Positions 7,899-52,518 of a stretch of DNA of 64,000 bases are shown here, in pieces. The translations under genes and the position numbers were made by a program. Source of the stretch: an uncultured Gammaproteobacteria bacterium (GTDB taxonomy: Bacteria > Patescibacteriota > Microgenomatia > Daviesbacterales > UBA10151); assembly GCA_964551605.1 (NCBI GenBank), contig CAZKCV010000003.1, positions 15,474 to 79,473 on the forward strand. Direction: 5' to 3'. The number at the start of each line of letters is the position of its first letter. Within the stretch, counting starts at the first letter, position 1. A model generated the notes under the pieces. That model did no database searches and was not told the origin of the DNA. It worked only from the letters and a program-made list of their open reading frames with translations.

Positions 7899-8218
7899 TT
7901 TTTGACACCTCCTTTCAGATATTTATCAGTCAAAACCCTACTTGGATAGGCTGTTTTAAGAAAAATTGCTTTTCTTTTCTTATCTATCACATAAGGCACA
8001 GCATATACATATTCTTTTATCTTTACTACTAATATTCTTTGGTGAGGATATTTTTTGCTACTATGCCTTATATTACCTAGTATTTTCTTCCCTTCAATAG
8101 CAGTAACGACATCCTCCAACCCCACTCCTCTAGTTTCTTTTAATAAAAGATTTTTCTCTTCGGCAAACTCAATTCTGTAACCCTGGTACTTCACAAATAT
8201 ATTATACTCTCTGTACAT
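7895..8218 (-). CDS. brnT: BrnT-like toxin (DUF497, RelE-fold ribonuclease)
   Basis: 107 aa. The FAEEKN...KETRGVGLEDVVTAI...RILVVKIKEYVYAVPYVIDKKRKAIFLKTAYPSRVLTDKY pattern matches BrnT/DUF497. Toxin-first order is typical of BrnTA. Confidence 0.65.
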   Translation of the reverse strand: MYREYNIFVKYQGYRIEFAEEKNLLLKETRGVGLEDVVTAIEGKKILGNIRHSSKKYPHQRILVVKIKEYVYAVPYVIDKKRKAIFLKTAYPSRVLTDKYLKGGVKK

Positions 8219-8278
8219 ACTTTGTCAATACAGTAATAGGGCTAGTTAAGACATGATCCAAGATTTTGTATAATAAAT

Positions 8279-8745
8279 ACATGATCAATAACCTTGATGT
8301 AGACAAACTTCTTGATGAAGCTGATATAGAACATCAAAAACAACAATTACTTGAAGTGAGAATAAAAAACCAATTGTTCGTTCATATCAAGAATTTCTTG
8401 ATGAAGATGGAAAAGTTAAAGATAAATCCCCTTTTTATGTAGTTGTCCATAAAGCTGTAATCGAAGACGACAAACAACAAATAGATGAACAGACTCGCAA
8501 AAAAATATTAGGAGAGATTGATTTCATTGAAAAGAATTTCGACCATACCTCTGCTGGTCCTTTTCAAAGAGCAGCCGTACCTCACGATCGACCGATCATA
8601 GTGTGCGGTGCCTATGATGCTGTATGTGTTGGACAACAACACGATTTGCTTATTAAAGGAGGATTTGACGCTTATATATCCAAAGAAGGAACACTACCTT
8701 TTACTCCTAATAAACCTGCATACGAACCGAGTAATCAATAGTTTA
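8279..8745 (+). pseudogene. frameshifted ORF (shift at an A7 homopolymer near 8373-8379); hypothetical protein
   Basis: Frame 1 reads MINNLDVDKLLDEADIEHQKQQLLEVRIKN and stops soon after the A-run. The -1 frame then reads PIVRSYQEFLDEDGKVKDKSPFYVVVHKAVIEDDKQQIDEQTRKKILGEIDFIEKNFDHTSAGPFQRAAVPHDRPIIVCGAYDAVCVGQQHDLLIKGGFDAYISKEGTLPFTPNKPAYEPSNQ with no in-frame ATG. This is either a pseudogene or a homopolymer sequencing error. Confidence 0.35.
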
Positions 8746-11875: not shown

Positions 11876-11929
11876 AAAAACCTAACGCCTGAGCAGGTTT
11901 AATTTTGGTTCGATTAACGTCAACCCTTG

Positions 11930-12195
11930 CTCCCCCGAGAGGATTCGAACCTCTAACCTAGTCATTACTTTAATGGACTATCTCATCACCATAGATTAAA
12001 CCTTTAGGTGGTGGGCGCTTAAAGATGTACTCATCTAGTCTCTGCACCTTCCCCCCGCCAAAGGCGGGAGGCTTGGCTCAGGATTGTCCTTCACTTTCGT
12101 TCAAGACGTTCCCTGAATTCACCCACTTCTCATTCCGATGTTTCCACCGAAAGCTGCTAACACAGTGACCCGCTCTACCATTGAGCTACAGGGGA
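11930..12195 (-). tRNA. tRNA-Asn(GUU) interrupted by a ~194-nt group I intron in the anticodon loop
   Basis: Reverse complement gives exon 1 TCCCCTGTAGCTCAATGGTAGAGCGGGTCACTGT (12162-12195) and exon 2 TAATGACTAGGTTAGAGGTTCGAATCCTCTCGGGGGAG (11930-11967). Joined, these form a canonical cloverleaf with anticodon loop CU-GUU-AA, a TTCGAAT T-loop and a 7-bp acceptor stem with a U1-A72 pair. Confidence 0.75.
11968..12161 (-). ncRNA. group I self-splicing intron (core P, Q, R, S elements present) inserted after U of the anticodon loop
   Basis: The 5' exon ends in U and the intron ends in G (...ATTAAAG), as expected for group I introns. Intron sequence contains GAATTCAGGGAAC (P-like), AATCCTGAGCC (Q-like), GCAGAGACTAGA (R-like, GACUA G-site side) and GAGATAGTCC (S-like). 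Confidence 0.65.
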
Positions 12196-13395: not shown

Positions 13396-13484
13396 ATTTA
13401 ATTAGTCGTCAGCTTTCAGCTTTCAGTCGTCAGATTTTTAATTTTTAGTCTGATAGCTGAAGACTGATGACTGATAGCTACTAG
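13396..13484. repeat. intergenic palindromic element built from inverted arrays of heptamer repeats (NNNTCAG x4 / CTGANNN x4) around an AT-rich centre; copy 1
   Basis: Left arm tcgtcag ctttcag ctttcag tcgtcag; centre atttttaattttta; right arm ctgatag ctgaaga ctgatga ctgatag. The element exactly fills the dnaG-rpoD spacer. A related copy lies at 24300-24380. Confidence 0.5.
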
Positions 13485-22839: not shown

Positions 22840-22938
22840 TTGTGTCCAACAAGATTGTTTCGCTGATCGCTCACAATGACGAAAGAAGAGGATGATTCTC
22901 TACCGCAAAGTTCTTATTCCGCATGTTATAGTTAATTT

Positions 22939-23853
22939 ATGAGTGATATCGGTAAAGAAGGTCCGCGTATCCCCACTACTTCCTGGGAACAAATTAGGGC
23001 TATGCAATTAAGTACTCCCTATTCAGAAACGTTGAGGGCCTTTTTTGCAAGATCCAAAGAGTGGAGGGCTCAACCAAGACAACCAATTTCAGAAGAGGAG
23101 TTGAGAAATGCAATAAAACAACAAGTTATTAAGGCTAATGCTATGGTCCAAAATTACCATAACCCCGATTTAAAAATGATGAAATCCAGAAAAGTATTTG
23201 CTCAAGGTCTTGCTCGACCAGAGATTGGACAGCAAGTTCTAACCAGACTTTATTTTGGAATTGATTCCAGGCATTCAGCGGATGCTTTTAGTATATTGAT
23301 TGATGAATTCTCAAAGGCTGGATGTATGAGGGATATTGATATTGCCTTTAATGAAACAGCTATTGAGGAAGGTCGAACTACCTCCGATATGCTTGTAATC
23401 TATGAACCGCAGTCTCGCCCAGTTGTATTAAACAAAATCTTATCTGCTTACCGTTTAGCCAAAGAGCAACACCCAGATGTTTTCAATCTGACTCCCAGAC
23501 AGAGAGAGGCTGTGATGAGGCACGCCGTAATGCAATTTAAGGCTCCGATTGATGCAAACCTATCTTTTGTAGAAATGGATCCGGAAGATGCAGGGAAAAG
23601 CTGGGATACCGACGAAGTAAGAGAGATAAGAGCAGTTTCTGGTATAAATCATGTTCCTATTCCGAGCTTACCTAGACTAACTGACGAGGATTGGCTAAAA
23701 AAACAAGAGGCTGTAGAAAAAAGAGTTGTTTGGACTAAAAAGGCCGAAGAAGCCATAAAAAGCGGCAATGTAAAATCTGGAGATCAGTTAGAGTATAAAA
23801 GAAAATTATCCACCCCAGCTTTAGTTCAAAGAGGAACAATTACTGCAAAGTAG
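22939..23853 (+). CDS. hypothetical protein (no recognisable motif; GC-richer than surroundings)
   Basis: 304-aa intact ORF; coding is likely from its length and codon usage. Confidence 0.4.
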   Translation: MSDIGKEGPRIPTTSWEQIRAMQLSTPYSETLRAFFARSKEWRAQPRQPISEEELRNAIKQQVIKANAMVQNYHNPDLKMMKSRKVFAQGLARPEIGQQVLTRLYFGIDSRHSADAFSILIDEFSKAGCMRDIDIAFNETAIEEGRTTSDMLVIYEPQSRPVVLNKILSAYRLAKEQHPDVFNLTPRQREAVMRHAVMQFKAPIDANLSFVEMDPEDAGKSWDTDEVREIRAVSGINHVPIPSLPRLTDEDWLKKQEAVEKRVVWTKKAEEAIKSGNVKSGDQLEYKRKLSTPALVQRGTITAK

Positions 23854-23859
23854 AAAAAA

Positions 23860-24306
23860 TCATTCCCTCCCCCGTAGCTCTTGTTCCACTCTGCGCTGAT
23901 GATCTTTTGCTTTAATTAGCTTTCTCTTATCAAATTCTTTTTTACTCTTAGCCAGGCCTATTTCCAGCTTAAACCGGTTATTTTTCTCATAGATTGATAC
24001 CGGTACTAAGGTAGTCCCTTTTCCGGAGACTTTTCCAACCAGGGAGTTTATTTGATCTTTATGCAGTAATAACTTCCGGCTCTTCCCCGCATCATATTCT
24101 TTGTCTGCCGCCTGGTTATACCTGGGGATATTGGCATTGATTAAATAGGCCTCCCCATTTAGTACCCTGATATGACTCTCTCCCAAATCAATTCTGCCGG
24201 CCCGGATTGATTTAACCTCAGCACCTGACAGAACTATCCCGGCTTCCAGATGTTCCAGAATGTGATAATTATGGAGAGCTTTTTTGTTAATAATTCTCAT
24301 AGTCAT
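23860..24306 (-). CDS. smpB: SsrA-binding protein SmpB
   Basis: RIINKKALHNYHILEHLEAGIVLSGAEVKSIRAG...HIRV...EAYLINANIPRY..., the characteristic SmpB sequence. The start may be the second Met (24300). Confidence 0.85.
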   Translation of the reverse strand: MTMRIINKKALHNYHILEHLEAGIVLSGAEVKSIRAGRIDLGESHIRVLNGEAYLINANIPRYNQAADKEYDAGKSRKLLLHKDQINSLVGKVSGKGTTLVPVSIYEKNNRFKLEIGLAKSKKEFDKRKLIKAKDHQRRVEQELRGRE

Positions 24307-24380
24307 CAGTCTTCAGCTATCAGCTTTCAGACTTTTTAATTATATCAGTCTGATGACTGACGACTGACAGCTGATGACTA
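24300..24380. repeat. second copy of the heptamer-array palindromic element (NNNTCAG x4 / CTGANNN x4)
   Basis: tcatcag tcttcag ctatcag ctttcag - actttttaattatat - cagt ctgatga ctgacga ctgacag ctgatga. Fills the spacer between the stop of the 608-aa gene and the smpB start. Its left arm is near-identical to the reverse complement of the right arm of the 13.4-kb copy. Confidence 0.5.
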
Positions 24381-27009: not shown

Positions 27010-27050
27010 GCATAAGTAACTTAAGTTACTTAGGTCACTTAGGTTACTTA
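27010..27050. repeat. short tandem repeat, 4 x 9 bp (TTARGTYAC-like)
   Basis: ttaagttac ttaggtcac ttaggttac ttaggttcg. It lies immediately upstream of the start of the 26439..26996 gene. Confidence 0.5.
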
Positions 27051-28723
27051 GGTTCGATATTAAAGAAAGCAAAGCCGCTTTGGGGGATAGACATTCTGCC
27101 AGGTGCCCGCAAATTAAAGGCTTTCTTAAAATCAGCCCCGGATAAACTAACCCCCTCAATAGTCACCTGACTAGTATTGCCGTCACCTTGAATGACACTG
27201 ACAGAGATAGCTCCGGAAATCCCCCCGTATTTAGAAGCTACTGACCGCAGTTCATCCATACTGTAAGGATTCCCTCCCCAGCAGGAAGAAACCGGAGTCA
27301 CCCGGGAAGCCTCCTCGCTACTTCCTTTAATTAAAACTAAAGCAGCATTAACTATATCAGCCATTTCACTCCCATTAAGCCACGGATTACTCCTACCGCA
27401 TTTATCACTATTTACACTGTATCCTTGGGTATACCAGGCTTTATAAACCCAGGGGGAACCGCCGGCTTTTTCATAGGATTTATCAACAAAACTGGAGCCG
27501 CCGCCGCCGTCAGTAGTGTCCCAGCCCATCGATGGTATATAAACCCCATGGGTAGAAGCATAATAAGTCACCACGTCTTCAATGACCTGGCCGCGGGTGC
27601 TGTCTACTGCATCTTTCCAGGCCTGCGGCGGGCTGTCGGATTTGGATTTTGAATAGACCTGACAAGCTTCACTGGTACAAATGGCCTGGCCGTTTTGTTT
27701 ATACCGATAAGCATAAGTCCGGGCTGCCACAGCCTGGGCTTTTAATGCCTCCATATGCCAGCTGGAAGGCATCTCAGCAATGCCATATAAGTACTTTTCT
27801 TCAAAATTCATTGAACCATAACCTGAGACATTAATATCCCCACCGGTATCCTTACCCACCGGCTCTTTACCGTAATAGGCCCGTAAAATGGCTTTATAAT
27901 CCTGGCCAGACTGGGCCCGGCCCCGGGCTCCGTATTGGCTCATCCCTTTTCTGTGGGTATGGGCTCCGAAGGAAAAAACCGCAAAAGAACCCGAGGGAGC
28001 CGCTTCCCGGAAACCTTTAATAGAGGCATTATAATCATCTGCCAGCTCACTGTCCCCGATACTGGCGGTAAACTGGCCGGATCGGGCGGCTAAAATTTCC
28101 TGCTGCTTGGCGGAAAGTTCGGCAATTTTACCTGATAAATCAGATTGATAGGCTATAGCCTTTTTTATTTCTCCCCCCAAGAATGTCGCATTCTTATCTA
28201 CCTGCTCCTGAAAAGCAGCCAGTTTAATTTTATCTTTCTCCAGGCTTTCCTTATCTGTCAGAATACTCACTACTTCATTGCTGATACTTCTGATAATTTC
28301 CCGGTTTTGATTGATAGTTTTTAAGTGATAGAGTTTATCGGATAATCTGGATTGTCCCAGCAAAAAACCAATCGGATTATAGGAGTAAAGATTTTTATAA
28401 TCCTCTGCCACCCGTTCATTAAAGATAGCTGTCAGACCCACCAGGTTTTCTTCCCTGATATCAATTTCCTTTTGCTTTTTTTGGATATTCAAAGATAAAT
28501 TATTTAAGTTGGCCTGGATTTGAGCCAGTTGCAATTTCAAAGAGTTAAGCTGACCCTCTAAAGGCTTGGTGGCATTAACAGAAGATTCCCGGGCTTTATT
28601 TAATTCATTAATCTGATTTTGCAGATCCTCAATTTCATCTGCCCGGATAGGAGATGTAATGCCGGATAAAACCAGCAGAAAAAAGGTCAGTAGTAAAAGG
28701 AGGATTATCCTGGGCATGAGCAA
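27044..28723 (-). CDS. SpoIID/LytB-domain protein with signal peptide and N-terminal coiled coil
   Basis: 559 aa. Signal peptide; long heptad-rich segment (EIEDLQNQINELNKAR...); C-terminal AHTHRKGMSQYGARGRAQSGQDYKAILRAYYG matching the SpoIID/LytB signature. Confidence 0.65.
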   Translation of the reverse strand: MLMPRIILLLLLTFFLLVLSGITSPIRADEIEDLQNQINELNKARESSVNATKPLEGQLNSLKLQLAQIQANLNNLSLNIQKKQKEIDIREENLVGLTAIFNERVAEDYKNLYSYNPIGFLLGQSRLSDKLYHLKTINQNREIIRSISNEVVSILTDKESLEKDKIKLAAFQEQVDKNATFLGGEIKKAIAYQSDLSGKIAELSAKQQEILAARSGQFTASIGDSELADDYNASIKGFREAAPSGSFAVFSFGAHTHRKGMSQYGARGRAQSGQDYKAILRAYYGKEPVGKDTGGDINVSGYGSMNFEEKYLYGIAEMPSSWHMEALKAQAVAARTYAYRYKQNGQAICTSEACQVYSKSKSDSPPQAWKDAVDSTRGQVIEDVVTYYASTHGVYIPSMGWDTTDGGGGSSFVDKSYEKAGGSPWVYKAWYTQGYSVNSDKCGRSNPWLNGSEMADIVNAALVLIKGSSEEASRVTPVSSCWGGNPYSMDELRSVASKYGGISGAISVSVIQGDGNTSQVTIEGVSLSGADFKKAFNLRAPGRMSIPQSGFAFFNIEPK

Positions 28724-28779: not shown

Positions 28780-30159
28780 ATGTCCAGAATCCTTTCTTCA
28801 AGATTTTTATTCCAAATCTTTAGTGTGATACTTTCCCTTTTTATACCCTTTTTAGCATCAGAAAAGGTGCTGGCTCAAAATGTTAATATTCGGTGTAGCG
28901 ACAATTTCCAAAAGTATATCCGGTCTGTTAATCTACCAGAAGAAGTTCGCCTCGGAGAAGCTTTTAATGTCAAAGTGGCGTTTACCTCCATTGCAGATAC
29001 TTCCTTAAATTATTATCTGAAATTCACTCAGCCAGGAACTCCACTGTTCGGCCAAAATATCGGTAATGCGGATTTCCGAACAGAGTGGCAACATATTAGT
29101 AACCCAGCAAATCCGGAAATTGATTTCAGTTTTGATAATCGCAACGATACTAGCCCAGGCACCTTCCAACTCAGCTTAATGTATACCACACGTAATTTCG
29201 ATAGAGAAGAAGAGGTATGTAAATTAGGCACTATTAATTTTGTCGAAAAAAACATGAATGAAATTACTTGTAATCTGAAAATGCCTGATAAGGTTGAGCA
29301 AGATAAACCCTTCACTATGAACCTGGATAAAGTTGATAAGCCCAATATCGAATATGCCTTCTATTTCTTTTCCAAAGGAGACATCGATATTAATAAATTA
29401 CCCAAAGGTATGGCAGTTGTTCAAACTGGTAGAAATTTAGCACCCATCTCGAAATTCACTCCCGGTAAAAATACACGCTACAGCAGTGGAGCACTGCCTT
29501 CAAATCCTTCCGGGTCAATTCCCATAACATATAGCAATAACGGAGGTGACCGACTTCGTGGAGGGGAATATATTGCTGTCATCGAAGCTAGAAGACTTCT
29601 AAACTGGAATCCTAGCTTCACTCTTACCGGAGATGACAATAAATGGCTGGTTTCTTACTGTAGTTACCACCCCTTTACCGTCAGCTCAGAACCTACCTCT
29701 GCGGAAACTGACGGGACAGCTATTGCCAAACCAGGGAAAGGTGGTACTTTAGGCGGAGAAGACCTCAAAACTGAAACTTGTTTGGAAAGATTAAGAAAAG
29801 ATCCTACTGCCAAGTGTGCAGAGGCAGGCGGAAAACAAATAAGCGGTTGCGGTGGCCAGGATGACCCAAGAGGACCGGCCATTGCCACTGCTATTGGCTG
29901 TATCCATACCAATCCTGTGGAATTTACTAAAGATATCATGAAGTTTGTTTTGGGTATTGCCGGTGGCCTGGCTTTCTTAATGATGCTGATGGGTGCTTTT
30001 CAAATTCTTTCTTCTGCTGATAACCCGGACACCTTAAAAGCCGGCAGAGAAAGATTAACCAGCGCTGTAATCGGACTTCTGTTAGTTATTTTTGCCGTCT
30101 TGCTGCTGCAAATAATCGGAATTGATATACTGCATTTGCCCGGATTCGGAAGATCATGA
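28780..30159 (+). CDS. large pilin-domain protein: signal peptide + ~370-aa extracellular domain fused to a C-terminal VirB2/TrbC-like pilin module
   Basis: The C-terminal 80 aa (FVLGIAGGLAFLMMLMGAFQILSSADNPDTLKAGRERLTSAVIGLLLVIFAVLLLQII) share the motif of the five small pilin genes downstream. Confidence 0.55.
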   Translation: MSRILSSRFLFQIFSVILSLFIPFLASEKVLAQNVNIRCSDNFQKYIRSVNLPEEVRLGEAFNVKVAFTSIADTSLNYYLKFTQPGTPLFGQNIGNADFRTEWQHISNPANPEIDFSFDNRNDTSPGTFQLSLMYTTRNFDREEEVCKLGTINFVEKNMNEITCNLKMPDKVEQDKPFTMNLDKVDKPNIEYAFYFFSKGDIDINKLPKGMAVVQTGRNLAPISKFTPGKNTRYSSGALPSNPSGSIPITYSNNGGDRLRGGEYIAVIEARRLLNWNPSFTLTGDDNKWLVSYCSYHPFTVSSEPTSAETDGTAIAKPGKGGTLGGEDLKTETCLERLRKDPTAKCAEAGGKQISGCGGQDDPRGPAIATAIGCIHTNPVEFTKDIMKFVLGIAGGLAFLMMLMGAFQILSSADNPDTLKAGRERLTSAVIGLLLVIFAVLLLQIIGIDILHLPGFGRS

Positions 30160-30182
30160 CAATATACAACATCAATTAACCT

Positions 30183-30600
30183 AATTAATCTAATTTCTAA
30201 TTTACCTAAAGAATGACTAATGACGAAATTACCAAAAAGTTTAACCTGGAAGATAGAACAGCTCTATTTGGAGAAAGTGTGATTAAATTTTGCCAAAAGA
30301 TATTCAGGGGACCTTTAACTGATCCTTTGATTATACAACTGGTAAAATGTGGCACCAGTGTAGGTGCTAATTATTGCGAAGCAGATGATGCAGAGAGTAA
30401 AATGGACTTTAAGCATAAAATAGGCATTTGTAAAAAAGAGGCTAGGGAAGCTAAACATTTTATCAGAATGGTTGTAATTGCAATACCTGCTTTAAAAGAA
30501 GAAGCCAAACCACTATGGCAAGAAGCGAAAGAATTAAACTTGATATTTAACGCTATTTATAAGAAAGTAAAATAAGGAAGAATTAATCTAATTTCTAATT
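30183..30600. mobile_element. putative insertion cassette: four-helix-bundle gene bounded by perfect 20-bp direct repeats (AATTAATCTAATTTCTAATT)
   Basis: Identical 20-mers at 30183-30202 and 30581-30600 flank the 30213..30575 CDS. An inverted partial copy (aattagaaatt) lies at ~30665-30675. Confidence 0.45.
30213..30575 (+). CDS. four-helix-bundle protein (23S rRNA intervening-sequence protein family, TIGR02436-like)
   Basis: 120 aa. LVKCGTSVGANYCEADDAESKMDFKHKIGICKKEAREAKHFIRM matches this family. Confidence 0.75.
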   Translation: MTNDEITKKFNLEDRTALFGESVIKFCQKIFRGPLTDPLIIQLVKCGTSVGANYCEADDAESKMDFKHKIGICKKEAREAKHFIRMVVIAIPALKEEAKPLWQEAKELNLIFNAIYKKVK

Positions 30601-30675
30601 ATTCTAATTGATCTAAACTTAGACATTTGATCATTGGGATTTATTTAGAAATTAGTAATTAAAAATTAGAAATTT

Positions 30676-30990
30676 ATGAAGCTAGCTCTAACCTTACCTG
30701 GCTCTAATAATATTGTTGATAGCCCTGTAAAAGAGAAGTTTACTGATCTCGCTGGTGTCCTAACCGGCATACTTAATATCGTCTTTTACCTGGCAGCCTT
30801 TATGGCTTTTTTCTATATCCTCTGGGGGGCATTTTCCTATATCAGCGCCCAGGGCAAAAAAGAAGATTTGGCCAAGGCCCGGGCCAGGATCACCTGGGCT
30901 ATAATCGGATTAGTGATTGTCTTTCTGGCCTTTATCCTCACCCAATTTATTGCCGAAGTATTTAAGCCGCAAGGAGGATTACCATTCTGA
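30676..30990 (+). CDS. VirB2/TrbC-like T4SS pilin paralog
   Basis: 104 aa with two hydrophobic helices and the shared loop motif GAFSYISAQGKKEDLAKARARITWAIIGLVIV. Confidence 0.6.
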   Translation: MKLALTLPGSNNIVDSPVKEKFTDLAGVLTGILNIVFYLAAFMAFFYILWGAFSYISAQGKKEDLAKARARITWAIIGLVIVFLAFILTQFIAEVFKPQGGLPF

Positions 30991-30992
30991 AA

Positions 30993-31022
30993 AAGGGTAC
31001 AGGGTACAGGGTACAGGGTACA
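30993..31022. repeat. tandem heptamer repeat (GGTACAG x4)
   Basis: gggtacagggtacagggtacagggtacag lies between two pilin genes. Confidence 0.5.
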
Positions 31023-31037
31023 GTTAAGAAAGCTTTT

Positions 31038-38177: not shown

Positions 38178-39110
38178 TTAGCCGCATCTTTTGACAGCTC
38201 TGCATTTGGGACAACTATCCCCGGCCCTGACTATACAATTTATTTCTTCTTGGCAAATCGGACATACCCGGCAAAAATCAGAGTCTTTACCGCTGGAACC
38301 TGATGAACCCCCATAAGAAATAGCGTTTTCCGAAACAACCTGAAAGCCGGTTCTGCCACCACTACCAGATCGCGGCGGACAACTGCCACCCTGTAAGCCC
38401 AGTATTTGCATAACGGCCTTTTTTGCCTCATCTGAATAAGATAATCTCGAATCAGTAAAAAACTGTTTTTGGACCATTGCAGCCCGCCTCAAGGCTTCTT
38501 TTTTATATTCTTTATCTTCCCCATTTCTGATCATTGTCCAAACTTTGGGAGCATCAATTAATTTTTCCAGAATATCAACCCAGGATTTTTTCTCTTCATC
38601 TAAAATTAAAGGGGTCGCCCTGATCCCGTCTGAACTCCGAAATATAGGTTTATTAAGGCTAAAGCTGGTTAAATTCCAGGCAAATTTCATACACTGCTCT
38701 TCATTAAAATCCAGCACAATCGCCCGGTTAAATACTTTTTTAACTCCTGCTTCATAAATAATTTCCTGAACAATTATCTTAGAAGTAGGATAAACCCCTG
38801 CTTTTGGCGGACTAATCCAAATAGAAGCCCCTTTTTTATTAGCAGCAGCCCATTGTTCGTTTGCTAATACAGCCTGATATTCTAGTTGCCCCAACAGACT
38901 GGTTTTATCATCAATAGTAGCTTTCACCAGACACTGACCGATCGGCGAGAATAATTCTCCGCTTGCTGTAATCGAATAAAAATAAGGATCAGGAATCCGG
39001 TAAGTCTCTTGGCTTAAAGAAGCCAGATATTCAGCAAATTGCGCGGCGGTGGTGTTTCGTAAACCGGGAATATTTTCGGTAGCCGTTCGCTCTTGTTCTA
39101 ATACTGGCAT
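38178..39110 (-). CDS. hypothetical protein with C-terminal 4-Cys zinc ribbon
   Basis: Preferred start is MPVLEQ (39110), preceded by a GGAG Shine-Dalgarno. The C-terminus reads CRVCPICQEE...CPKCRAVKRCG. A Gly/Ser-rich linker precedes the Zn ribbon. Confidence 0.5.
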   Translation of the reverse strand: MPVLEQERTATENIPGLRNTTAAQFAEYLASLSQETYRIPDPYFYSITASGELFSPIGQCLVKATIDDKTSLLGQLEYQAVLANEQWAAANKKGASIWISPPKAGVYPTSKIIVQEIIYEAGVKKVFNRAIVLDFNEEQCMKFAWNLTSFSLNKPIFRSSDGIRATPLILDEEKKSWVDILEKLIDAPKVWTMIRNGEDKEYKKEALRRAAMVQKQFFTDSRLSYSDEAKKAVMQILGLQGGSCPPRSGSGGRTGFQVVSENAISYGGSSGSSGKDSDFCRVCPICQEEINCIVRAGDSCPKCRAVKRCG

Positions 39111-39454
39111 ATAACTCCTGCTCGGGATAAAAAATTGTGGTCGGTCTCCTGACTTTACCCTTCGATTCCACTCAGGGTTATAACAGTTGCGGCACAGTCT
39201 CTGATTTACACAGAGTTCCCTTAAGAGCGAAGCTTGCAAGCTCCGCTTATTGTACTTTGAGTTCAATTCTGAACCTAGTACACCACCATCCCAGCATAGC
39301 CGGAGAATTATCAATTTTCAAGTCCCAATTTTCTCCACTGATTTAATCTGATCTTGTCCGAATTGATCTGTTTTGTGCCGCTTGCCAATACTTTTTTCAC
39401 GTTGTATAACAGTGATGAGTTCGTAGTTGGTAGTTCGTAGTACTAAGTTATAAA

Positions 39455-39823
39455 ATGACTAACTTCAATTTTCAAAACCTGAGCGTCTATAAAAAATCCC
39501 TGGATTTTTGTGAGCAGATTTATCAAACTACAAAGACATGGCCTAAGGAATACTCGTTTGATATAACAAGCCAACTAAGAAGAGCTTCGCTGTCAATATC
39601 TTTAAATATAGCAGAAGGCACAAGCAGGACGAAAAAGGAATTCAGCAGGTTTCTTGATATTGCCCGTGGTTCATGTTTCGAATGCGTTGCATTAATAGAA
39701 ATAGGTGTGAAATTAACCCTTATAGAAAATACTCTGAAAGCTAGATTTCTCATGGATCTAGAAGAATTATCTAAAATGCTTTCCGGTCTTAAGAAATCTA
39801 TGAACTATGAACTCAAGGCGTGA
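39455..39823 (+). CDS. four-helix-bundle protein (23S rRNA IVS protein family), second copy
   Basis: 122 aa. NLSVYKKSLDFCEQIYQ...LRRASLSISLNIAEGTSRTKKEFSRFLDIARGSCFECVALIEI matches TIGR02436-type proteins. Confidence 0.75.
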   Translation: MTNFNFQNLSVYKKSLDFCEQIYQTTKTWPKEYSFDITSQLRRASLSISLNIAEGTSRTKKEFSRFLDIARGSCFECVALIEIGVKLTLIENTLKARFLMDLEELSKMLSGLKKSMNYELKA

Positions 39824-40914: not shown

Positions 40915-41655
40915 ATGAACACTACACAACAACATCTGGCTGTTAGGGATATTCACGGTGACATTCTGATTCTCAAAGACGGCGGAGGCGCCCTGGTGCT
41001 GCAGGTTTCAGCTGTTAATTTTGGCTTGCTTTCCGAACGTGAACAGATGGCCATTATCCAAAGTTTTGCCCAAATGCTTAATTCGTTATCTTTTAGCCTG
41101 CAGATTGTCATTCATTCCGAAAGGCTTAACTTAAGCTCTTATCTGACGCTTTTGGAAAAAGCCCAAAAAGCTCAGACTAATCCGCTGCTGTCGCAAATGA
41201 TTACCGACTATAAACAATTCATACAAAGTGTAGTTAAAGACATGGAAGTACTGGATAAAAAATTTTATATTATCATTCCTCTGTTTAGCATAGAACTAGG
41301 TCTAACTGCCTCCAAAGCTAATTTAGAACAAAAAATTAAAACCGTACTCACGCCCAGAAAAGATCAGGTCATCAGACAACTGCAGCGGGTAGGACTGCAG
41401 GCTGTTCAATTAGACAAAGCAAAATTAATTGAGGTTTTCTATGATATCTATAACGGAGAACAAATCCAGCCGGCTGAATCAGTTCAACTACAGGACCTGG
41501 CAGTCAGGCTCAAAAATCCGCAACCCAGTCAAGCCGGTCCGCAAGCCAATATACCGCCACCTATCCAACAACCCACTCCTCAACCAGTTCAGGCACCAAC
41601 TGCCACCCAAACAGCAAGAAACCATCCTTTTATTGTAGAGGAGCTGGAAGCATGA
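40915..41655 (+). CDS. VirB4/TrbE N-terminal domain protein (split from the ATPase domain)
   Basis: 246 aa. LAVRDIHGDILILKDGGGALVLQVSAVNFGLLSEREQMAIIQSFAQMLNSL matches the VirB4/TrbE N-terminal pattern. Ends in a Pro/Gln-rich tail and overlaps the next ORF by 4 nt (ATGA). Confidence 0.5.
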   Translation: MNTTQQHLAVRDIHGDILILKDGGGALVLQVSAVNFGLLSEREQMAIIQSFAQMLNSLSFSLQIVIHSERLNLSSYLTLLEKAQKAQTNPLLSQMITDYKQFIQSVVKDMEVLDKKFYIIIPLFSIELGLTASKANLEQKIKTVLTPRKDQVIRQLQRVGLQAVQLDKAKLIEVFYDIYNGEQIQPAESVQLQDLAVRLKNPQPSQAGPQANIPPPIQQPTPQPVQAPTATQTARNHPFIVEELEA

Positions 41656-43409
41656 AACTACCAAGTTTACTTAAAAAAACAAAGCAAACTGATCCGGCGA
41701 TTCCTCAGTTAACTCTGGAGGATGTTCTGGCACCGGCTGAACTGGAAGTAGATTTTAACTACCTAAAAGTAGACGGCCGCTTTTTCAGAACCTATTTTGT
41801 GTCTAATTATCCCCGCTATGTTGATCCCAACTGGCTGGAGCCGTTAATTTCCTTTGACCATACCCTGCTCATTTCCATGTTTATTTATCCTTCCCAATCA
41901 CAAGGGGTGCTGGATGAGCTTAAACGCAAGGTAGCTGAGATGGAAGCCACCATCCAAACAGACCTGGAGCGGGGCCGGGCTATTGACCCGGCAGTAGAAG
42001 TCGCTTTAGAAGATGCCAGGGGCTTGCAGGACCAGCTGGTCAGGGGGGTAGAGCGGTTTTTCCAGTTTGGTCTCTATATTTGTGTACCGGCTGCTTCCCT
42101 GGAAGAGCTGCAAAATACTTCCAAGCTCGTGGAATCTACTTTAGCGGCTCTTTCCATTACCGCCAAACAGGTCATCTTGCAAATGGAGGACGGGTTTAAG
42201 TCCTGCCTGCCCCAGGGTCAGGATTTATTAAACCTAAACCATAATATGGACACCACCTCCCTGGCTACTACTTTTCCCTTTGCCTCATCAGAATTGACTG
42301 CCAACGAAGGTATTATGTACGGAATTAATGAGCATAACGGCTCGCTGATTTTATTTGACAGGTTTAGTTTGGAAAACTTTAATTCAGTTATTTTTGCCAA
42401 AGCCGGGGCCGGCAAATCATACTTTGTAAAACTGGAGGCCTTAAGATCATTAATGTTCGGAGCGGAAATTATCGTCATTGATCCTGAACAGGAATACCTA
42501 CCCCTCTGCCAGGCAGTCGGAGGTGAATATATTAACTTTTCCGCCTCATCACCGGTAAAAATCAATCCCTTTGACATGTCAGGCGAACTGGTACCCGGGG
42601 AAAATGAGCTGGGCCGAAAAATCTTATCTTTAACCAGCTTCTTAAGGATTGTTTTAGGCAACTTAAACGCCCAGGAAACAGCGGTTTTAGACCGGGCCCT
42701 AAAACAAACCTATCAATTAAAAGGCATTACTGATAATCCGGAAACCCAAAATAAAATCCCGCCCTTAATGGAGGATTTATATAAAGTCTTAATCGGGATG
42801 GAAGAAGGCCCGACCATGGAGCTGGCTGCCAGATTAGAGCGCTTCATTAAAGGCTCATTGACCGGTATTTTTTCTGCCCACTCCAATATTGACCTTAAAA
42901 ATTCCTTTACTGTCTTTTCTGTCCGGGATTTGCCGGATCAGCTGCGGCCCTTAGCCATCCATATGATTTTGGAATATGTCTGGACCAAAATCAGGGGGAA
43001 GCTTAAAAAAAGATTATTAATCGTAGATGAAGCCTGGTATTTAATGAGAAACCAGGATTCGGCTGACTTTTTAGTGGATATGGCCAAAAGGGCCAGGAAA
43101 TATTATCTGGGGCTAACTACTATTACTCAGGATGTCGAGGATTTTCTGGCCACTGAGCGGGGCAAGGAAATTATCTCCAACTCCTCCATCCAGGTACTCT
43201 TAAAACAAGCTCCGGCTTCTATTGACCTTTTGGCGGAAGTTTTTAATTTATCAGAAGGGGAACAAAGGCTGCTCATGTCAGAAGGAGTAGGTGAAGGAAT
43301 ATTCTTTGCCGGTAATACCCATGTCGCTATGAGGGTGGTGGCCTCCTCCAACGAGCATGAATTAATTACCACCAGCCCCCAGGAGATCCTGGCCAGACAA
43401 GAAGAATAA
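41652..43409 (+). CDS. VirB4/TrbE-family T4SS ATPase (central and C-terminal ATPase domains)
   Basis: 585 aa. Walker A FAKAGAGKSYFVK, Walker B RLLIVDEAWYLM, and a VirB4-like mid region (RTYFVSNYPRYVDPNWLEPLI). Confidence 0.8.
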   Translation: MKLPSLLKKTKQTDPAIPQLTLEDVLAPAELEVDFNYLKVDGRFFRTYFVSNYPRYVDPNWLEPLISFDHTLLISMFIYPSQSQGVLDELKRKVAEMEATIQTDLERGRAIDPAVEVALEDARGLQDQLVRGVERFFQFGLYICVPAASLEELQNTSKLVESTLAALSITAKQVILQMEDGFKSCLPQGQDLLNLNHNMDTTSLATTFPFASSELTANEGIMYGINEHNGSLILFDRFSLENFNSVIFAKAGAGKSYFVKLEALRSLMFGAEIIVIDPEQEYLPLCQAVGGEYINFSASSPVKINPFDMSGELVPGENELGRKILSLTSFLRIVLGNLNAQETAVLDRALKQTYQLKGITDNPETQNKIPPLMEDLYKVLIGMEEGPTMELAARLERFIKGSLTGIFSAHSNIDLKNSFTVFSVRDLPDQLRPLAIHMILEYVWTKIRGKLKKRLLIVDEAWYLMRNQDSADFLVDMAKRARKYYLGLTTITQDVEDFLATERGKEIISNSSIQVLLKQAPASIDLLAEVFNLSEGEQRLLMSEGVGEGIFFAGNTHVAMRVVASSNEHELITTSPQEILARQEE

Positions 43410-45299: not shown

Positions 45300-45742
45300 A
45301 AAATATTAAAATCATAATATTTATAATAGTTATGCTAAGTATTATGGCTTTTATTCTGAAAAGCCGTATTACTATCTTACCTTCCCCCTCCCAGTCACCC
45401 TCACCACAAACAGTATCCTCATCCGACAAGCCCACAATAATTTCTACCAAACCTAATCCTTTGGATGAAAGTATTATTACAGCCACGGAAATAGTAGAAA
45501 TTACTTTTAACCGGACCATTGAGAATGTGGGGGAATTTAAGGTCAAAATTGAGCCGGAAATAGAATACAGGATGGAGCTTTCCGGGGACAGAAAAACCGC
45601 TAAAATTATCCCCCTTAAACCTTACCAGCTAGGCACAACTTATACCTTGTTTATCGGCACTGAAACTAAATTTGACGGCGTGGGCAGATGGGGAGAAGAA
45701 AAGGTTTTCCATTTTAGAACCATTAAGTATACGGGTGTATAA
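45257..45742 (+). CDS. secreted/anchored hypothetical protein with Ig-like (SbsA/Big-type) domain
   Basis: 161 aa with an N-terminal hydrophobic helix and a Ser/Pro linker. ATEIVEITFNRTIENVGEFKVKIEPEIEY...KIIPLKPYQLGTTYTLFIG resembles a bacterial Ig-like domain. Confidence 0.4.
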   Translation: MRPQLAAIRLFMSMKNIKIIIFIIVMLSIMAFILKSRITILPSPSQSPSPQTVSSSDKPTIISTKPNPLDESIITATEIVEITFNRTIENVGEFKVKIEPEIEYRMELSGDRKTAKIIPLKPYQLGTTYTLFIGTETKFDGVGRWGEEKVFHFRTIKYTGV

Positions 45743-45824
45743 GCGTATGGTGAATAGCGTACAGCGTATAGTTAAAGAAAAATTATGCGCTTACAACTAT
45801 ACCCTAAACGCTATACGCTAAACC

Positions 45825-46925
45825 CTAGTTAAGTCTCACCGGCATTACAATATATTCCAATCCTTCAACACCCATTGGCTTAATCAAAGCCGCTGACAGA
45901 GCTCCGGAAAATTCAATCATAATCTGGGTCGCAGGAGCGTTAGAGATAGCATCCAATAAAAACTTGGTATTAAAGGCGATTTTTAACTCTTCTCCTTCAA
46001 TTTCTCCTTCTATTTCATTTTCCTGGCTGCCCAGTTCCTTAGCCTGTGATTCCAGCTTTAATATGCCTTTTTTAGTGGTTAAAACTACTACATTAGCTTC
46101 ATTTTTGGCAAAAATAGCTGCCAGTTTACTGGCTTTTAATAATTCCTCTTTCCCAATCATTGCCCTGGCCACAATCTTTTCCGGGATTATCTTTTCCCAA
46201 GCCGGGAATTGGCCTTCAATTAATCGGGAAGAAACAATCGTATTTCCCAGCTTAAATACTACCTGATTTTGGTTCTGACTGGTGGCAATACCAACCTCTT
46301 CAACTTCTTCTTCAGCTATAATCCGCAGTAATTCCTCAAACGTTCTCCGGGGAATTAAACTCCTAAACTGATCTTTGCCTTTAGGTAATTCAAACCGGCG
46401 GTGGGCTAGCCTAAATCCATCTGTGGCTACAAAATCCAACTTGCCATTAGACACTTCAGTCAATATACCGGTCAAAATCGGCCTGCCCTCATCCACCGCC
46501 GAGGCAAACAGAATTTGCGATGAGATTAAAAAGGCTTCCTTAGGAAAACTGATGCCAGTACCTTCAGCCAAAGGGATAGCCGGAAATTCAGCAGCGGCAA
46601 TCCCGTTAATACTGGCCTTTAGTTTACCGGACTGCACAGTTAAAACTTCATCTTCTGATGTCAAAATCACCTTAGCTTGTCCTAAACCGGAAATAAGCTC
46701 TACTAAAGTCTTGGCAGGCACAGTAACTTCTCCGGGAACTTCAATTTCCGTATTAATATACTTAATTACCCCGATTTCTAGATTTGTGGCTGCTATCTTT
46801 AATTTCTGTCCTTCAGCGGAAAGTAAAATATTATCCAGTACCGGCAAGGTGGAACGGATACCAACTGACCGGGCCACAGCTTGCAATGCAGGCAGTAAAT
46901 CTTGTTGTAAACATGTAAATTTCAT
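45825..46925 (-). CDS. dnaN: DNA polymerase III beta subunit (sliding clamp) DnaN
   Basis: 366 aa. MKFTCLQQDLLPALQAVARSVG is the classical DnaN N-terminus; three-domain length. Confidence 0.9.
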   Translation of the reverse strand: MKFTCLQQDLLPALQAVARSVGIRSTLPVLDNILLSAEGQKLKIAATNLEIGVIKYINTEIEVPGEVTVPAKTLVELISGLGQAKVILTSEDEVLTVQSGKLKASINGIAAAEFPAIPLAEGTGISFPKEAFLISSQILFASAVDEGRPILTGILTEVSNGKLDFVATDGFRLAHRRFELPKGKDQFRSLIPRRTFEELLRIIAEEEVEEVGIATSQNQNQVVFKLGNTIVSSRLIEGQFPAWEKIIPEKIVARAMIGKEELLKASKLAAIFAKNEANVVVLTTKKGILKLESQAKELGSQENEIEGEIEGEELKIAFNTKFLLDAISNAPATQIMIEFSGALSAALIKPMGVEGLEYIVMPVRLN

Positions 46926-50634: not shown

Positions 50635-50972
50635 TGCTTCCTAAATCCCAACGCTTAAACTTAAAAAAAGATTTCAAATGGGTAGCTGGTGGCAAAAAGC
50701 TGGAGACTGCCTATTTGAAGCTTTTTATTAAAATGGGAGATAACCGGCAGCCCCGAATTGGCATAGCAGTCTCTTCCCGGATCTTTAAGAATGCTACAGA
50801 GAGAAACCGGGCCAAACGAGTAGTTTCAGCAGCATGGGAAGTTCTTTATTCAAATCTACCCGATACTATTAACATAGTGGCCCTTCCCAAAGCCGGGGTA
50901 ATTAAGGTAAAATCAGGTGATCTGCTTTTAGATTTGGAAGCAGCTTTAAAAAATGCAAAGATTATTAATTAG
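50634..50972 (+). CDS. rnpA: RNase P protein component RnpA
   Basis: [17 protein letters not shown]...[22 protein letters not shown] is the RnpA RNR motif region. The start overlaps the rpmH stop (TAATG). Confidence 0.85.
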
Positions 50973-51153
50973 TTTAATTAGTTTTTACCAAACCTTTCTG
51001 TCATTTGATAAAGGAGTGCTGGCGGTATTTGCGCCGGGCGGAGCATGCAGGTATAATCCAACCTGCTCTGAGTATGCTAAGCAGCAGGTCAGGAAGTTTG
51101 GGGTCCTCAGGGGAATTTGGTTTGGCTTAAAAAGAATTTGGAGTTGTAGATGA
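50953..51153 (+). CDS. yidD: membrane protein insertion efficiency factor YidD
   Basis: 66 aa. [37 protein letters not shown] is the YidD signature. Confidence 0.8.
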
Positions 51154-52017: not shown

Positions 52018-52518
52018 ATGGAAAATCAATTAAGCGATGTATTGGATAATGTGCTGGGTTTGTTGCTCCTTGAGGGTAGCTACGATATTGAAGAGGGAGA
52101 GGAAGGTTTTTCTGTTTCCATCGAAACCCAAGATGCCGGTAGGTTAATCGGAGCCAGAGGCGAATCGCTGGATGCGTTGCAGCTTTTAGTTAACCAAATG
52201 GTAGCCAGAAAAGTCGGAGAAGAGGGTTTTAAAAGGGTGGTTATAGATGTGGAAGGCTGGAGAAAGCAGAAAGAGGAGGAGTTGGTAAAAAGCGCGGAAA
52301 GCTGGGGTAAACAGGTTTTGGAAACAAAAAAAGAAATTGAGCTTGAGCCGATGTCATCCTGGCAAAGAAGAATTGTACATATGACGATTTCCGAGATGGA
52401 AGGGGTGGAATCTGAGAGTTTGGGAGAAGGAAGAGACAGGCATATTGTAATAAAACTCAAAGATCAAAAGTCAAAGGTCAAAAGTGAAGAGCAAGATGTC
52501 AAAACTCAAGAGAGTTGA
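52018..52518 (+). CDS. jag: Jag/KhpB-like RNA-binding protein (KH + R3H domains)
   Basis: 166 aa. The C-terminal R3H-like region MSSWQRRIVHMTISEMEGVESESLGEGRDRHIVIK. Located after yidC as in the conserved rpmH-rnpA-yidC-jag cluster. Confidence 0.7.
   Translation: MENQLSDVLDNVLGLLLLEGSYDIEEGEEGFSVSIETQDAGRLIGARGESLDALQLLVNQMVARKVGEEGFKRVVIDVEGWRKQKEEELVKSAESWGKQVLETKKEIELEPMSSWQRRIVHMTISEMEGVESESLGEGRDRHIVIKLKDQKSKVKSEEQDVKTQES

Follow-up and report, generated by a model that had tools for sequence, protein, structure and literature searches.

What kind of element lies between two pilin genes at positions 30160-30675 of the window (here the whole 64-kb stretch of contig CAZKCV010000003.1, to which all coordinates without a locus label refer), and what is the nature of the 20-nt direct repeats that bracket its open reading frame (ORF)? 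The initial annotation described a four-helix-bundle gene of the rRNA intervening sequence (IVS) type inserted into a pilin array, and proposed that it was a small mobile cassette whose direct repeats were a target-site duplication or recombination sites. With a probability of roughly 0.7, we consider the segment to be a copy of a small selfish cassette of the rRNA IVS kind, located at an operon junction instead of in rRNA. This reading draws on the observed anatomy of the segment, its insertion status, its distribution, orientation bias and miniature derivatives, and the selection acting on its protein.

The surrounding island is a type IV secretion-like cluster of the type found in the candidate phyla radiation (CPR), whose genes include PrgI, VirB4 split into two ORFs, and T4SS_pilin genes, one of them large and five small; its nearest relatives belong to Daviesbacteria. 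A search of the window for rRNA genes found none, and the element lies instead between two T4SS_pilin genes, the large one and the first small one, exactly where the bundle gene had been placed. PADLOC defense-system models gave no match, and a search for carriage by phages gave one weak phage match only. The cassette and its two host genes are composed as follows.

28780-30159, plus strand: upstream host gene, 459 aa, with a C-terminal T4SS_pilin domain (PF18895, 34 bits)
30160-30675, plus strand: whole insert, about 516 bp, from the large-pilin stop codon to the small-pilin start codon (delimited by blastn against the relative L098, see below)
30174-30212, plus strand: left end array (LE), units AATTAACCT, AATTAATCT, AATTTCT and AATTTACCT, then AAAGA directly before the ATG; holds the first copy of the 20-mer
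30213-30575, plus strand: 4HB-1, a 120-aa four-helix-bundle protein, TIGR02436 / PF05635 (S23p / 23S_rRNA_IVP), assigned by hidden Markov models (HMMs), AlphaFold2, Foldseek, a PDB profile search and the ratio of non-synonymous to synonymous substitution rates (dN/dS)
30581-30618, plus strand: second forward array (LE'), units AATTAATCT, AATTTCT, AATTATTCT and AATTGATCT, then AAAC; holds the second copy of the 20-mer
30634-30642, plus strand: conserved inner box TTGGGATTT, which recurs after the stop codon in most cassettes
30644-30675, plus strand: right end array (RE), inverted units TTTAGAAATTAG and TAATTAAAAATTAGAAATTT, 0 nt from the small-pilin ATG (motif counts and fold)
30581-30675, plus strand: LE', box and RE together, a local hairpin (fold -20.4 kcal/mol, z = -2.6) with the same anatomy as ORF-less miniature elements of relatives
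30676-30990, plus strand: downstream host gene, the first of the five small T4SS_pilin genes (PF18895, 41 bits)

Two exact copies of the 20-mer AATTAATCTAATTTCTAATT are present in the window, at the positions originally reported (30183-30202 and 30581-30600), where they bracket the ORF; no third copy was found in the window even when up to three mismatches were allowed. The shuffle expectation was 0.05 matches, and two or more matches occurred in none of 100 dinucleotide-preserving shuffles, but since the 20-mer is built from a small repertoire of repeat units, its recurrence within arrays is far less surprising than the shuffles imply. The match between the two copies extends to 27 nt with 89% identity. 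The 20-mer consists of LE units 2 (AATTAATCT) and 3 (AATTTCT) and the first four bases of unit 4, and represents the stretch common to LE and LE'. The inverted partial copy noticed near 30665 is present (AATTAGAAATT, 30664-30674), and a second one, TTAGAAATTAG, is found at 30645-30655. Clusters of CTAATT or AATTAG are restricted in the window to this cassette, apart from one weak pair at 50967-50981. The 20-mer is part of the terminal arrays of the cassette itself, rather than a duplicated target site.

In the minimum-free-energy fold of the cassette, positions 30192-30203 of LE pair with positions 30663-30674 of RE. In many relatives, the TTGGGATTT box is complementary to a AAATCCCAA located just before the ATG. 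A scan of LE and RE for promoter-like or terminator-like sites found none, the counts being not above those in shuffles.

A close relative with an empty site was recovered by scanning metagenomes with the neighboring SpoIID protein. This locus, L098, lies on a 1.15-Mb contig. The SpoIID that it encodes shares 94% identity with that of the window, the flanks of the pilin junction are 82-86% identical at the nucleotide level, and the DNA is colinear at 80-96% identity (blastn). In L098 the stop codon of the large pilin gene overlaps the start codon of the small one as ATGA, and the window is about 529 nt longer at this junction. Bundle gene, CTAATT cluster and 20-mer are all absent from the L098 junction. 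Blastn coordinates were used here because a MAFFT alignment of the empty site with the filled loci misplaced the short sequence. Judged from these coordinates, the 4HB-1 cassette is an insertion relative to L098. ATGA is present on both sides of the insert (30156-30159 and 30676-30679) and once in the empty site, but four nucleotides that encode a stop and a start are weak evidence. The pilin genes of three more distant relatives (L099, L100 and L101) are 2-5 nt apart and also have no cassette, while the cassette is present at the pilin junction of L103/L004; several Daviesbacteria share 4HB-1 at this place. The initial annotation had predicted an empty site with adjacent pilin genes and a single copy of the 20-mer: the adjacent genes were found in L098, the single copy was not.

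The three closest filled loci, the contigs L001-L003, encode an identical 120-aa protein in the same synteny; their upstream copy of the 20-mer has one mismatch and the downstream copy is absent. Their LE' is cut to one unit, the window having 25 nt more there, that is, three repeat units. In the more distant Daviesbacteria L004 and L017 a multi-unit downstream array is present, so the state of LE' in the window is probably ancestral, and L001-L003 would have lost units.

The same region shows other differences between relatives. The pilin genes around the cassette are hypervariable. At the same pilin junction, L102 (reverse complement, 8079-8300) carries a different, hairpin-like insert of about 220 nt without an ORF, in which G-rich repeat arrays (GAAGTGAGA...) at one side are opposed by their C-rich inverse (CCCACCTCCCATTTC...) at the other. 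L098 is longer by about 800 nt between the second small pilin gene and the third, and about 970 nt of the window (22880-23857), holding an ORF of 304 aa (22939-23853), are absent from L098 with colinear flanks.

Relatives of 4HB-1 were found in other genetic contexts. Homologs with 78-80% protein identity reside inside the ATP synthase operon in Levybacteria, between rhamnose-pathway genes (with epimerase/dehydratase-type and dTDP_sugar_isom domains) in Curtissbacteria, and before a sortase gene in Gottesmanbacteria. At least 564 relatives with 63-86% identity were found in species-representative genomes; they span many CPR lineages and also records labelled Ignavibacterium, Caldithrix, Bacteroidota and others. 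End arrays were counted in 82 non-redundant cassettes, with CTAATT sought within 80 nt upstream of the ORF and AATTAG within 140 nt downstream. At least two CTAATT upstream and at least two AATTAG downstream were present in 78 of the 82 cassettes. The mean numbers of CTAATT and AATTAG per cassette were 2.67 versus 0.05 upstream and 0.20 versus 2.84 downstream, and a forward array followed the ORF in only five cassettes. The units at both ends come from a single repertoire (AATTTCT, AATTAACCT, AATTGACCT, AATTGATCT, AATTATTCT and others), and the repertoire seen in LE also precedes the ORF in 78 of the 82 related cassettes. Since CTAATT units flank the gene in these cassettes whatever the host context, the element brings its units along; the counts thus show that the ORF takes its end arrays with it into unrelated operons and phyla. 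The LE/RE duplexes average about -25 kcal/mol.

The cassettes nearly always have the orientation of the genes around them and occupy the gap between stop and start codon. Co-orientation was found for 77 of 81 upstream genes and for 70 of 81 downstream genes. The left array starts at or within a few bases of the upstream stop codon, which is a median of 41 nt away from the ATG of the ORF, and many right arrays come to within 0-15 nt of the following ATG.

ORF-less miniatures of 110-140 nt were identified in L030, L040, L047 (three copies), L060, L068, L075 (two copies) and L077. They retain LE, remnants of the ORF start (ATGAC...), remnants of the TTGGGATTT box, and RE. The nearest relative of a cassette copy is another copy in its own genome: L027 and L032 share 84% nucleotide identity, and the two copies in L074 have an identical 45-nt left end with ORF cores that are only 77% identical. 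No target-site duplication was found at the two L074 copies. Positions 993-3393 of L074 hold three bundle cassettes in 2.4 kb; one has TAGGCAC units, and the other two are of the CTAATT type.

By every feature that could be tested, 4HB-1 is a member of the S23p / 23S_rRNA_IVP family, in agreement with the original description of the enclosed gene as an rRNA-IVS-type four-helix bundle. Its scores exceed the curated cut-offs of both models: 55.6 bits for TIGR02436, where 24 are required, and 35.8 bits for PF05635, where the threshold is 33.8. The AlphaFold2 model of the monomer (pLDDT 91.5) has four long helices (12-27, 36-58, 63-90 and 92-118), and its best Foldseek matches are the solved S23-family proteins 2RLD (TM 0.75-0.83) and 2GSC (TM 0.70-0.83), with the Avd structures 4DWL and 8UB7 further down the list. 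A profile search of PDB sequences with 4HB-1 also retrieved 2rld (E = 1e-11); the 2RLD structure consists of five chains of one sequence. The dN/dS ratio for this protein is about 0.07-0.17 where it is measurable, dS being mostly saturated between lineages. These ratios demonstrate purifying selection on the 4HB-1 protein. The sequence of the array units is conserved although dS is saturated, so that the unit sequence is under constraint too.

The window contains only two bundle ORFs. The second, 4HB-2, had been reported at 39455-39823, and this was confirmed by its scores of 107.5 bits on TIGR02436 and 109.8 bits on PF05635. It is also enclosed by heptamer arrays.

39416-39444, plus strand: left heptamer array of the second cassette, AGTTCGT, AGTTGGT, AGTTCGT and AGTACT, conserved in the orthologous loci L108, L110 and L111
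39455-39823, plus strand: 4HB-2, a 122-aa four-helix-bundle protein, the first gene of a PrgI / TraC-like / VirB4 operon (HMM)
39800-39815, plus strand: two inverted heptamers ATGAACT inside the 3' end of 4HB-2, which pair with 39416-39428 via one G-U pair in the minimum-free-energy fold

The initial annotation had suggested aligning the two bundle genes, but BLASTP produced no alignment between 4HB-1 and 4HB-2. That the two are copies of one cassette is ruled out by this lack of detectable similarity and by the conserved position of 4HB-2 before PrgI. Its orthologs in three other genomes (65-68% identity) are always directly upstream of PrgI and have matching arrays; in one of them, L110, both arrays have switched to AGTTATT/AATAACT. 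Because the orthologs keep a constant place, 4HB-2 is positionally stable, unlike 4HB-1. In L108 (4001-6011) two different bundle genes flank PrgI, and a third bundle gene is found in the same cluster. The VirB4/TraC-like ATPase downstream of 4HB-2 is encoded by two overlapping ORFs, 40915-41655 (N-terminal, TraC-like) and 41652-43409 (P-loop), and the same split arrangement is found in L108, L110 and L111. A different bundle gene, 30% identical to 4HB-2, is located beside the SpoIID start in L097 (reverse complement, 1004-1348), whose SpoIID is 91% identical to that of the window; the window has the large pilin gene at the corresponding place.

The same layout with other heptamers was found far from the 4HB-1 subfamily. 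A search of plasmids yielded only distant cyanobacterial homologs (33-38% identity), which were used to assess generality and not as vehicles. Seven cyanobacterial plasmid bundle genes had the same array layout, with flanks made of perfect inverted heptamer arrays: for example, Nostoc punctiforme has (GTCGGAG)n...(CTCCGAC)n, N. flagelliforme has (TAATTCG)4...(CGAATTA)4, and plasmid pNsp_c of Nostoc ATCC 53789 (L117, 549-1008) has (CAATTCG)4...(CGAATTG)4. The L117 cassette appears to split a DNA cytosine methyltransferase gene, with an annotated 76-aa fragment and a hypothetical ORF downstream. Inverted tandem arrays were also sought irrespective of repeat sequence in 802 kb of collected sequence. 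Those enclosing 350-570 nt contained a bundle ORF in six cases and none in one, and inverted array pairs at most 150 nt apart were ORF-less. Finally, 22 bundle ORFs without the exact GANY[CS]EAD motif of the subfamily (three of them close variants) were compared with 575 small control ORFs: an inverted flank match of at least 12 of 14 positions was found for 17 of the 22 bundle ORFs versus 7.3% of the controls (p = 3e-11). On these sequence comparisons, the combination of an ORF with inverted heptamer arrays is family-wide.

For such a cassette to be tolerated in an operon, we consider a mechanism modelled on rRNA IVSs. As LE and RE contain no promoter-like or terminator-like site, the cassette would have no promoter of its own and would be transcribed by read-through of the pilin operon. 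LE and RE would pair in the transcript to form a stem, which RNase III may cut, as shown experimentally for rRNA IVSs. The cut would separate the upstream mRNA, the mRNA of the bundle protein, and the downstream pilin mRNA with a very short leader, and the insertion would thus be tolerable. Recombination or slippage between LE and LE', which share 20 identical nucleotides, would delete the ORF and leave exactly a miniature element, a plausible route to the ORF-less copies. More speculatively, a pentameric bundle protein might bind three to five repeat units of its own subfamily, an idea suggested by the conserved unit sequence and by the units being specific to each subfamily.

Several points count against this explanation. 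Cognate LE/RE duplexes are no better than non-cognate ones (-24.7 versus -25.1 kcal/mol, p = 0.55), and no sense-versus-antisense (G-U) asymmetry was found in the arrays, so that nothing speaks for an RNA stem rather than for a DNA hairpin or for protein binding. The mixture of 7-nt and 9-nt units makes the stems imperfect. Read-through, stem formation and RNase III cleavage are all carried over by analogy. There is no associated recombinase, transposase or reverse transcriptase, and the term "mobile" derives from the distribution alone; the saturation of dS between phyla points to an ancient spread and not to a recent one. The position of the left boundary is approximate, as CAATATACAACATC (30160-30173) may be an old spacer, a similar stretch being present in L102.

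Four other explanations were weighed against the IVS-like cassette. If the 20-mers were a target-site duplication, or attL/attR cores, the insertion should have occurred into a site with one 20-mer copy. The gene is indeed an insertion, as its empty site and its presence in unrelated operons had led us to accept, and the repeat brackets the ORF perfectly and at a level above chance in shuffles. That part of the initial annotation stands, but its interpretation of the repeats does not: the empty site in L098 has neither the 20-mer nor a CTAATT cluster, L001-L003 have no downstream copy next to an identical protein, and the same units flank the ORF in unrelated hosts and thus travel with the element, only five of the 82 cassettes having a forward downstream array. 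In addition, 20 bp is far above known target-site duplication lengths, and no integrase gene was found nearby among the genes scanned. We therefore regard this origin of the repeats as most improbable. The arrays might instead act at the DNA level, as subterminal binding sites or single-strand hairpins for a transposase or recombinase supplied in trans, as in repetitive extragenic palindromes (REPs) with their REP-associated tyrosine transposases (RAYTs) or in MITEs (miniature inverted-repeat transposable elements); no RNA processing would then be involved, and the bundle protein would be a cargo or a cofactor. The missing advantage of cognate LE/RE pairs and the missing strand asymmetry make a DNA-level or protein-binding role a serious rival. 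It would also account for the conservation of the unit sequence, beyond complementarity, while dS is saturated, for the MITE-like ORF-less derivatives, and for the L074 copies with their identical 45-nt LE and ORFs of only 77% identity. No transposase is linked to the elements, however, there is no consistent target-site duplication, and the strong co-orientation with host transcription is unexpected for a purely DNA-level element. For the rRNA members, cleavage of the repeats by RNase III has been demonstrated experimentally (PMC4990558). We consider this explanation unlikely, though worth keeping in view.

The bundle gene could also be a resident, functional accessory of the type IV secretion/pilin cluster, with the repeats as its regulatory region. 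The conserved place of 4HB-2 directly upstream of PrgI in three other genomes, the third bundle gene in the same cluster of L108, and the presence of 4HB-1 at the pilin junction in several Daviesbacteria are consistent with such a role. The 4HB-1 subfamily is nevertheless found in ATP synthase, rhamnose, sortase and many other contexts, and the pilin genes of L098, L099, L100 and L101 are adjacent without 4HB-1, which makes a resident accessory very unlikely. CPR genomes are rich in diversity-generating retroelements, and Avd, their accessory protein, is a pentamer that binds nucleic acid and reverse transcriptase. That 4HB-1 might be an Avd protein of a retroelement diversifying the pilins was considered, given the shared fold (4DWL and 8UB7 among the structural matches) and the hypervariability of the neighboring pilins between relatives. 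None of the neighbors scanned has a reverse-transcriptase domain, and a search for a template/variable-repeat pair was negative; over 18 kb, the longest direct repeat measured 34 nt with 74% identity. The Avd model NF033474 gave no hit for 4HB-1 and 18.6 bits (cut-off 80) for 4HB-2. An Avd function is accordingly hardly credible.

The IVS-like cassette shares several features with the ORF-containing IVSs of 23S rRNA known from Coxiella burnetii and Leptospira: the protein family and fold, an ORF in sense orientation to the host transcript, inverted repeats that enclose the ORF and form a stem (here predicted from the fold), and a patchy distribution that looks horizontal. The S23p ORF of the Coxiella IVS is directly preceded by two to three tandem heptamers, whose number varies between strains, and the first repeat is the site of RNase III cleavage (PMC4990558). 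Tandem units directly upstream of the ATG are likewise found here, with variation in number seen in LE' after the ORF (25 nt between the window and L001). Unlike rRNA IVSs, the cassette lies between protein genes of an operon and not in helix 25 or 45 of 23S rRNA, and ORF-less miniature copies are scattered in the same genome as a cassette. Its units are mixed 7-mers and 9-mers, and its protein is under strong purifying selection, in contrast to the decaying one in Coxiella.

The arrays also resemble the short tandemly repeated repetitive (STRR) sequences of cyanobacteria and the GGGAATC / GGGGA(T/C)T arrays of Xanthomonas and Nostoc, which are intergenic tandem heptamers without a known function, often in convergent inverted pairs, whose length varies between close relatives; the arrays that flank the bundle genes of cyanobacterial plasmids are of exactly this type. 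Unexplained heptamer arrays, with many convergent pairs in Xanthomonas, were reported in Xanthomonas and Nostoc by Rehm et al. 2015 (PMC4692102), a paper with no mention of S23p or four-helix-bundle genes. We infer the link between bundle genes and the STRR and Xanthomonas arrays from nine loci and the CPR data. REPs, bacterial interspersed mosaic elements (BIMEs, including REPINs) and MITEs are similar in being intergenic inverted-repeat hairpins within operons, present or absent between close relatives and existing in ORF-bearing and ORF-less forms. They differ in that the arms of the cassette are tandem arrays of 7-9-nt units, not a single palindrome, and in that the cassette ORF encodes a four-helix bundle and not a Y1 (RAYT) or DDE transposase, without a consistent target-site duplication. 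With diversity-generating retroelements the cassette shares the four-helix-bundle fold of Avd, but not the reverse transcriptase or the template/variable repeats, neither of which was found. Earlier work had already reported scattered bundle genes, within cas operons and in rRNA insertions of CPR bacteria (PMC3936711; bioRxiv 10.1101/2024.02.27.582315). Among the papers searched, there was no description of inverted-heptamer cassettes at operon junctions, of their miniatures, of a link to STRR sequences, or of any other connection of these proteins with heptamer arrays outside rRNA, although prior work is not thereby excluded.

Other arrays of this kind are found elsewhere in the window.

13404-13480, minus strand: ORF-less mini-element of the AGTCATC type, between dnaG and rpoD
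24301-24380, minus strand: ORF-less mini-element of the AGTCATC type, exactly between the stop codon of the upstream gene and the smpB start; absent in L098
27013-27054: 9-mer array (ACTTAGGTT)x4 at the 3' end of the SpoIID gene
30994-31023, plus strand: perfect solo array of the heptamer AGGGTAC (x4.3) that separates the first small pilin gene from the second
45742-45828, unstranded: ORF-less inverted heptamer-array element of the AGCGTAT type, beside dnaN

The three ORF-less elements are hairpins of inverted heptamer arrays that occupy gaps between stop and start codons at operon junctions. The first unit of the element before smpB provides the TAG stop codon of the upstream gene, and in L098 nine bases separate this gene from smpB, without a mini-element. 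The two solo arrays (30994-31023 and 27013-27054), which have no obvious inverted partner, may be cassette remnants.

In the 3' end of the ORF 52018-52518, an array of eight AAAAGTC units (52452-52509) encodes a low-complexity tail; it resembles the right-end arrays that are read as C-terminal tails in the 4HB-2 orthologs. Divergent from 4HB-2, a 310-aa gene in the secretion-like cluster (38178-39110, minus strand) has an AGGAG ribosome-binding site and no Pfam match, and a cobalamin riboswitch (39122-39259, minus strand; 39.9 bits, gathering score 31.5) is located directly upstream of it. The gene would encode an uncharacterized, B12-regulated protein. Elsewhere in the window, a group I intron (69 bits with Rfam at 11958-12169) interrupts the anticodon region of a tRNA gene (11928-12195, minus strand) that ARAGORN did not call; the exon halves are 12164-12195 and 11928-11958, and a 313-aa ORF without a Pfam match comes next.

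The S23p / four-helix-bundle family, with its thousands of members and its solved structures, has no known function outside the retroelement protein Avd; how rRNA IVSs spread has been an open question since the 1990s. The locus described here offers a clean pair of filled and empty sites together with defined end arrays, and shows that the same unit, an ORF with inverted heptamer arrays, colonizes gaps between stop and start codons within essential operons (pilin, ATP synthase, dnaG-rpoD and smpB), both in CPR bacteria and in cyanobacteria. This calls for caution in the annotation of operons and small RNAs in reduced genomes. A broader proposal, which we put forward tentatively and consider possible but somewhat doubtful, is that S23p/IVP genes with inverted tandem-heptamer arrays form one widespread, unrecognized class of small mobile elements that would include rRNA IVSs, cyanobacterial STRR sequences, the GGGAATC arrays of Xanthomonas, and the cassettes and mini-hairpins of CPR bacteria, and whose pentameric protein would bind its own arrays sequence-specifically, governing their processing or spread. 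If the link is true, it would provide an origin for the unexplained tandem heptamers long used as fingerprinting markers in cyanobacteria, and would give the protein a testable role in repeat binding or in RNase III-linked processing.

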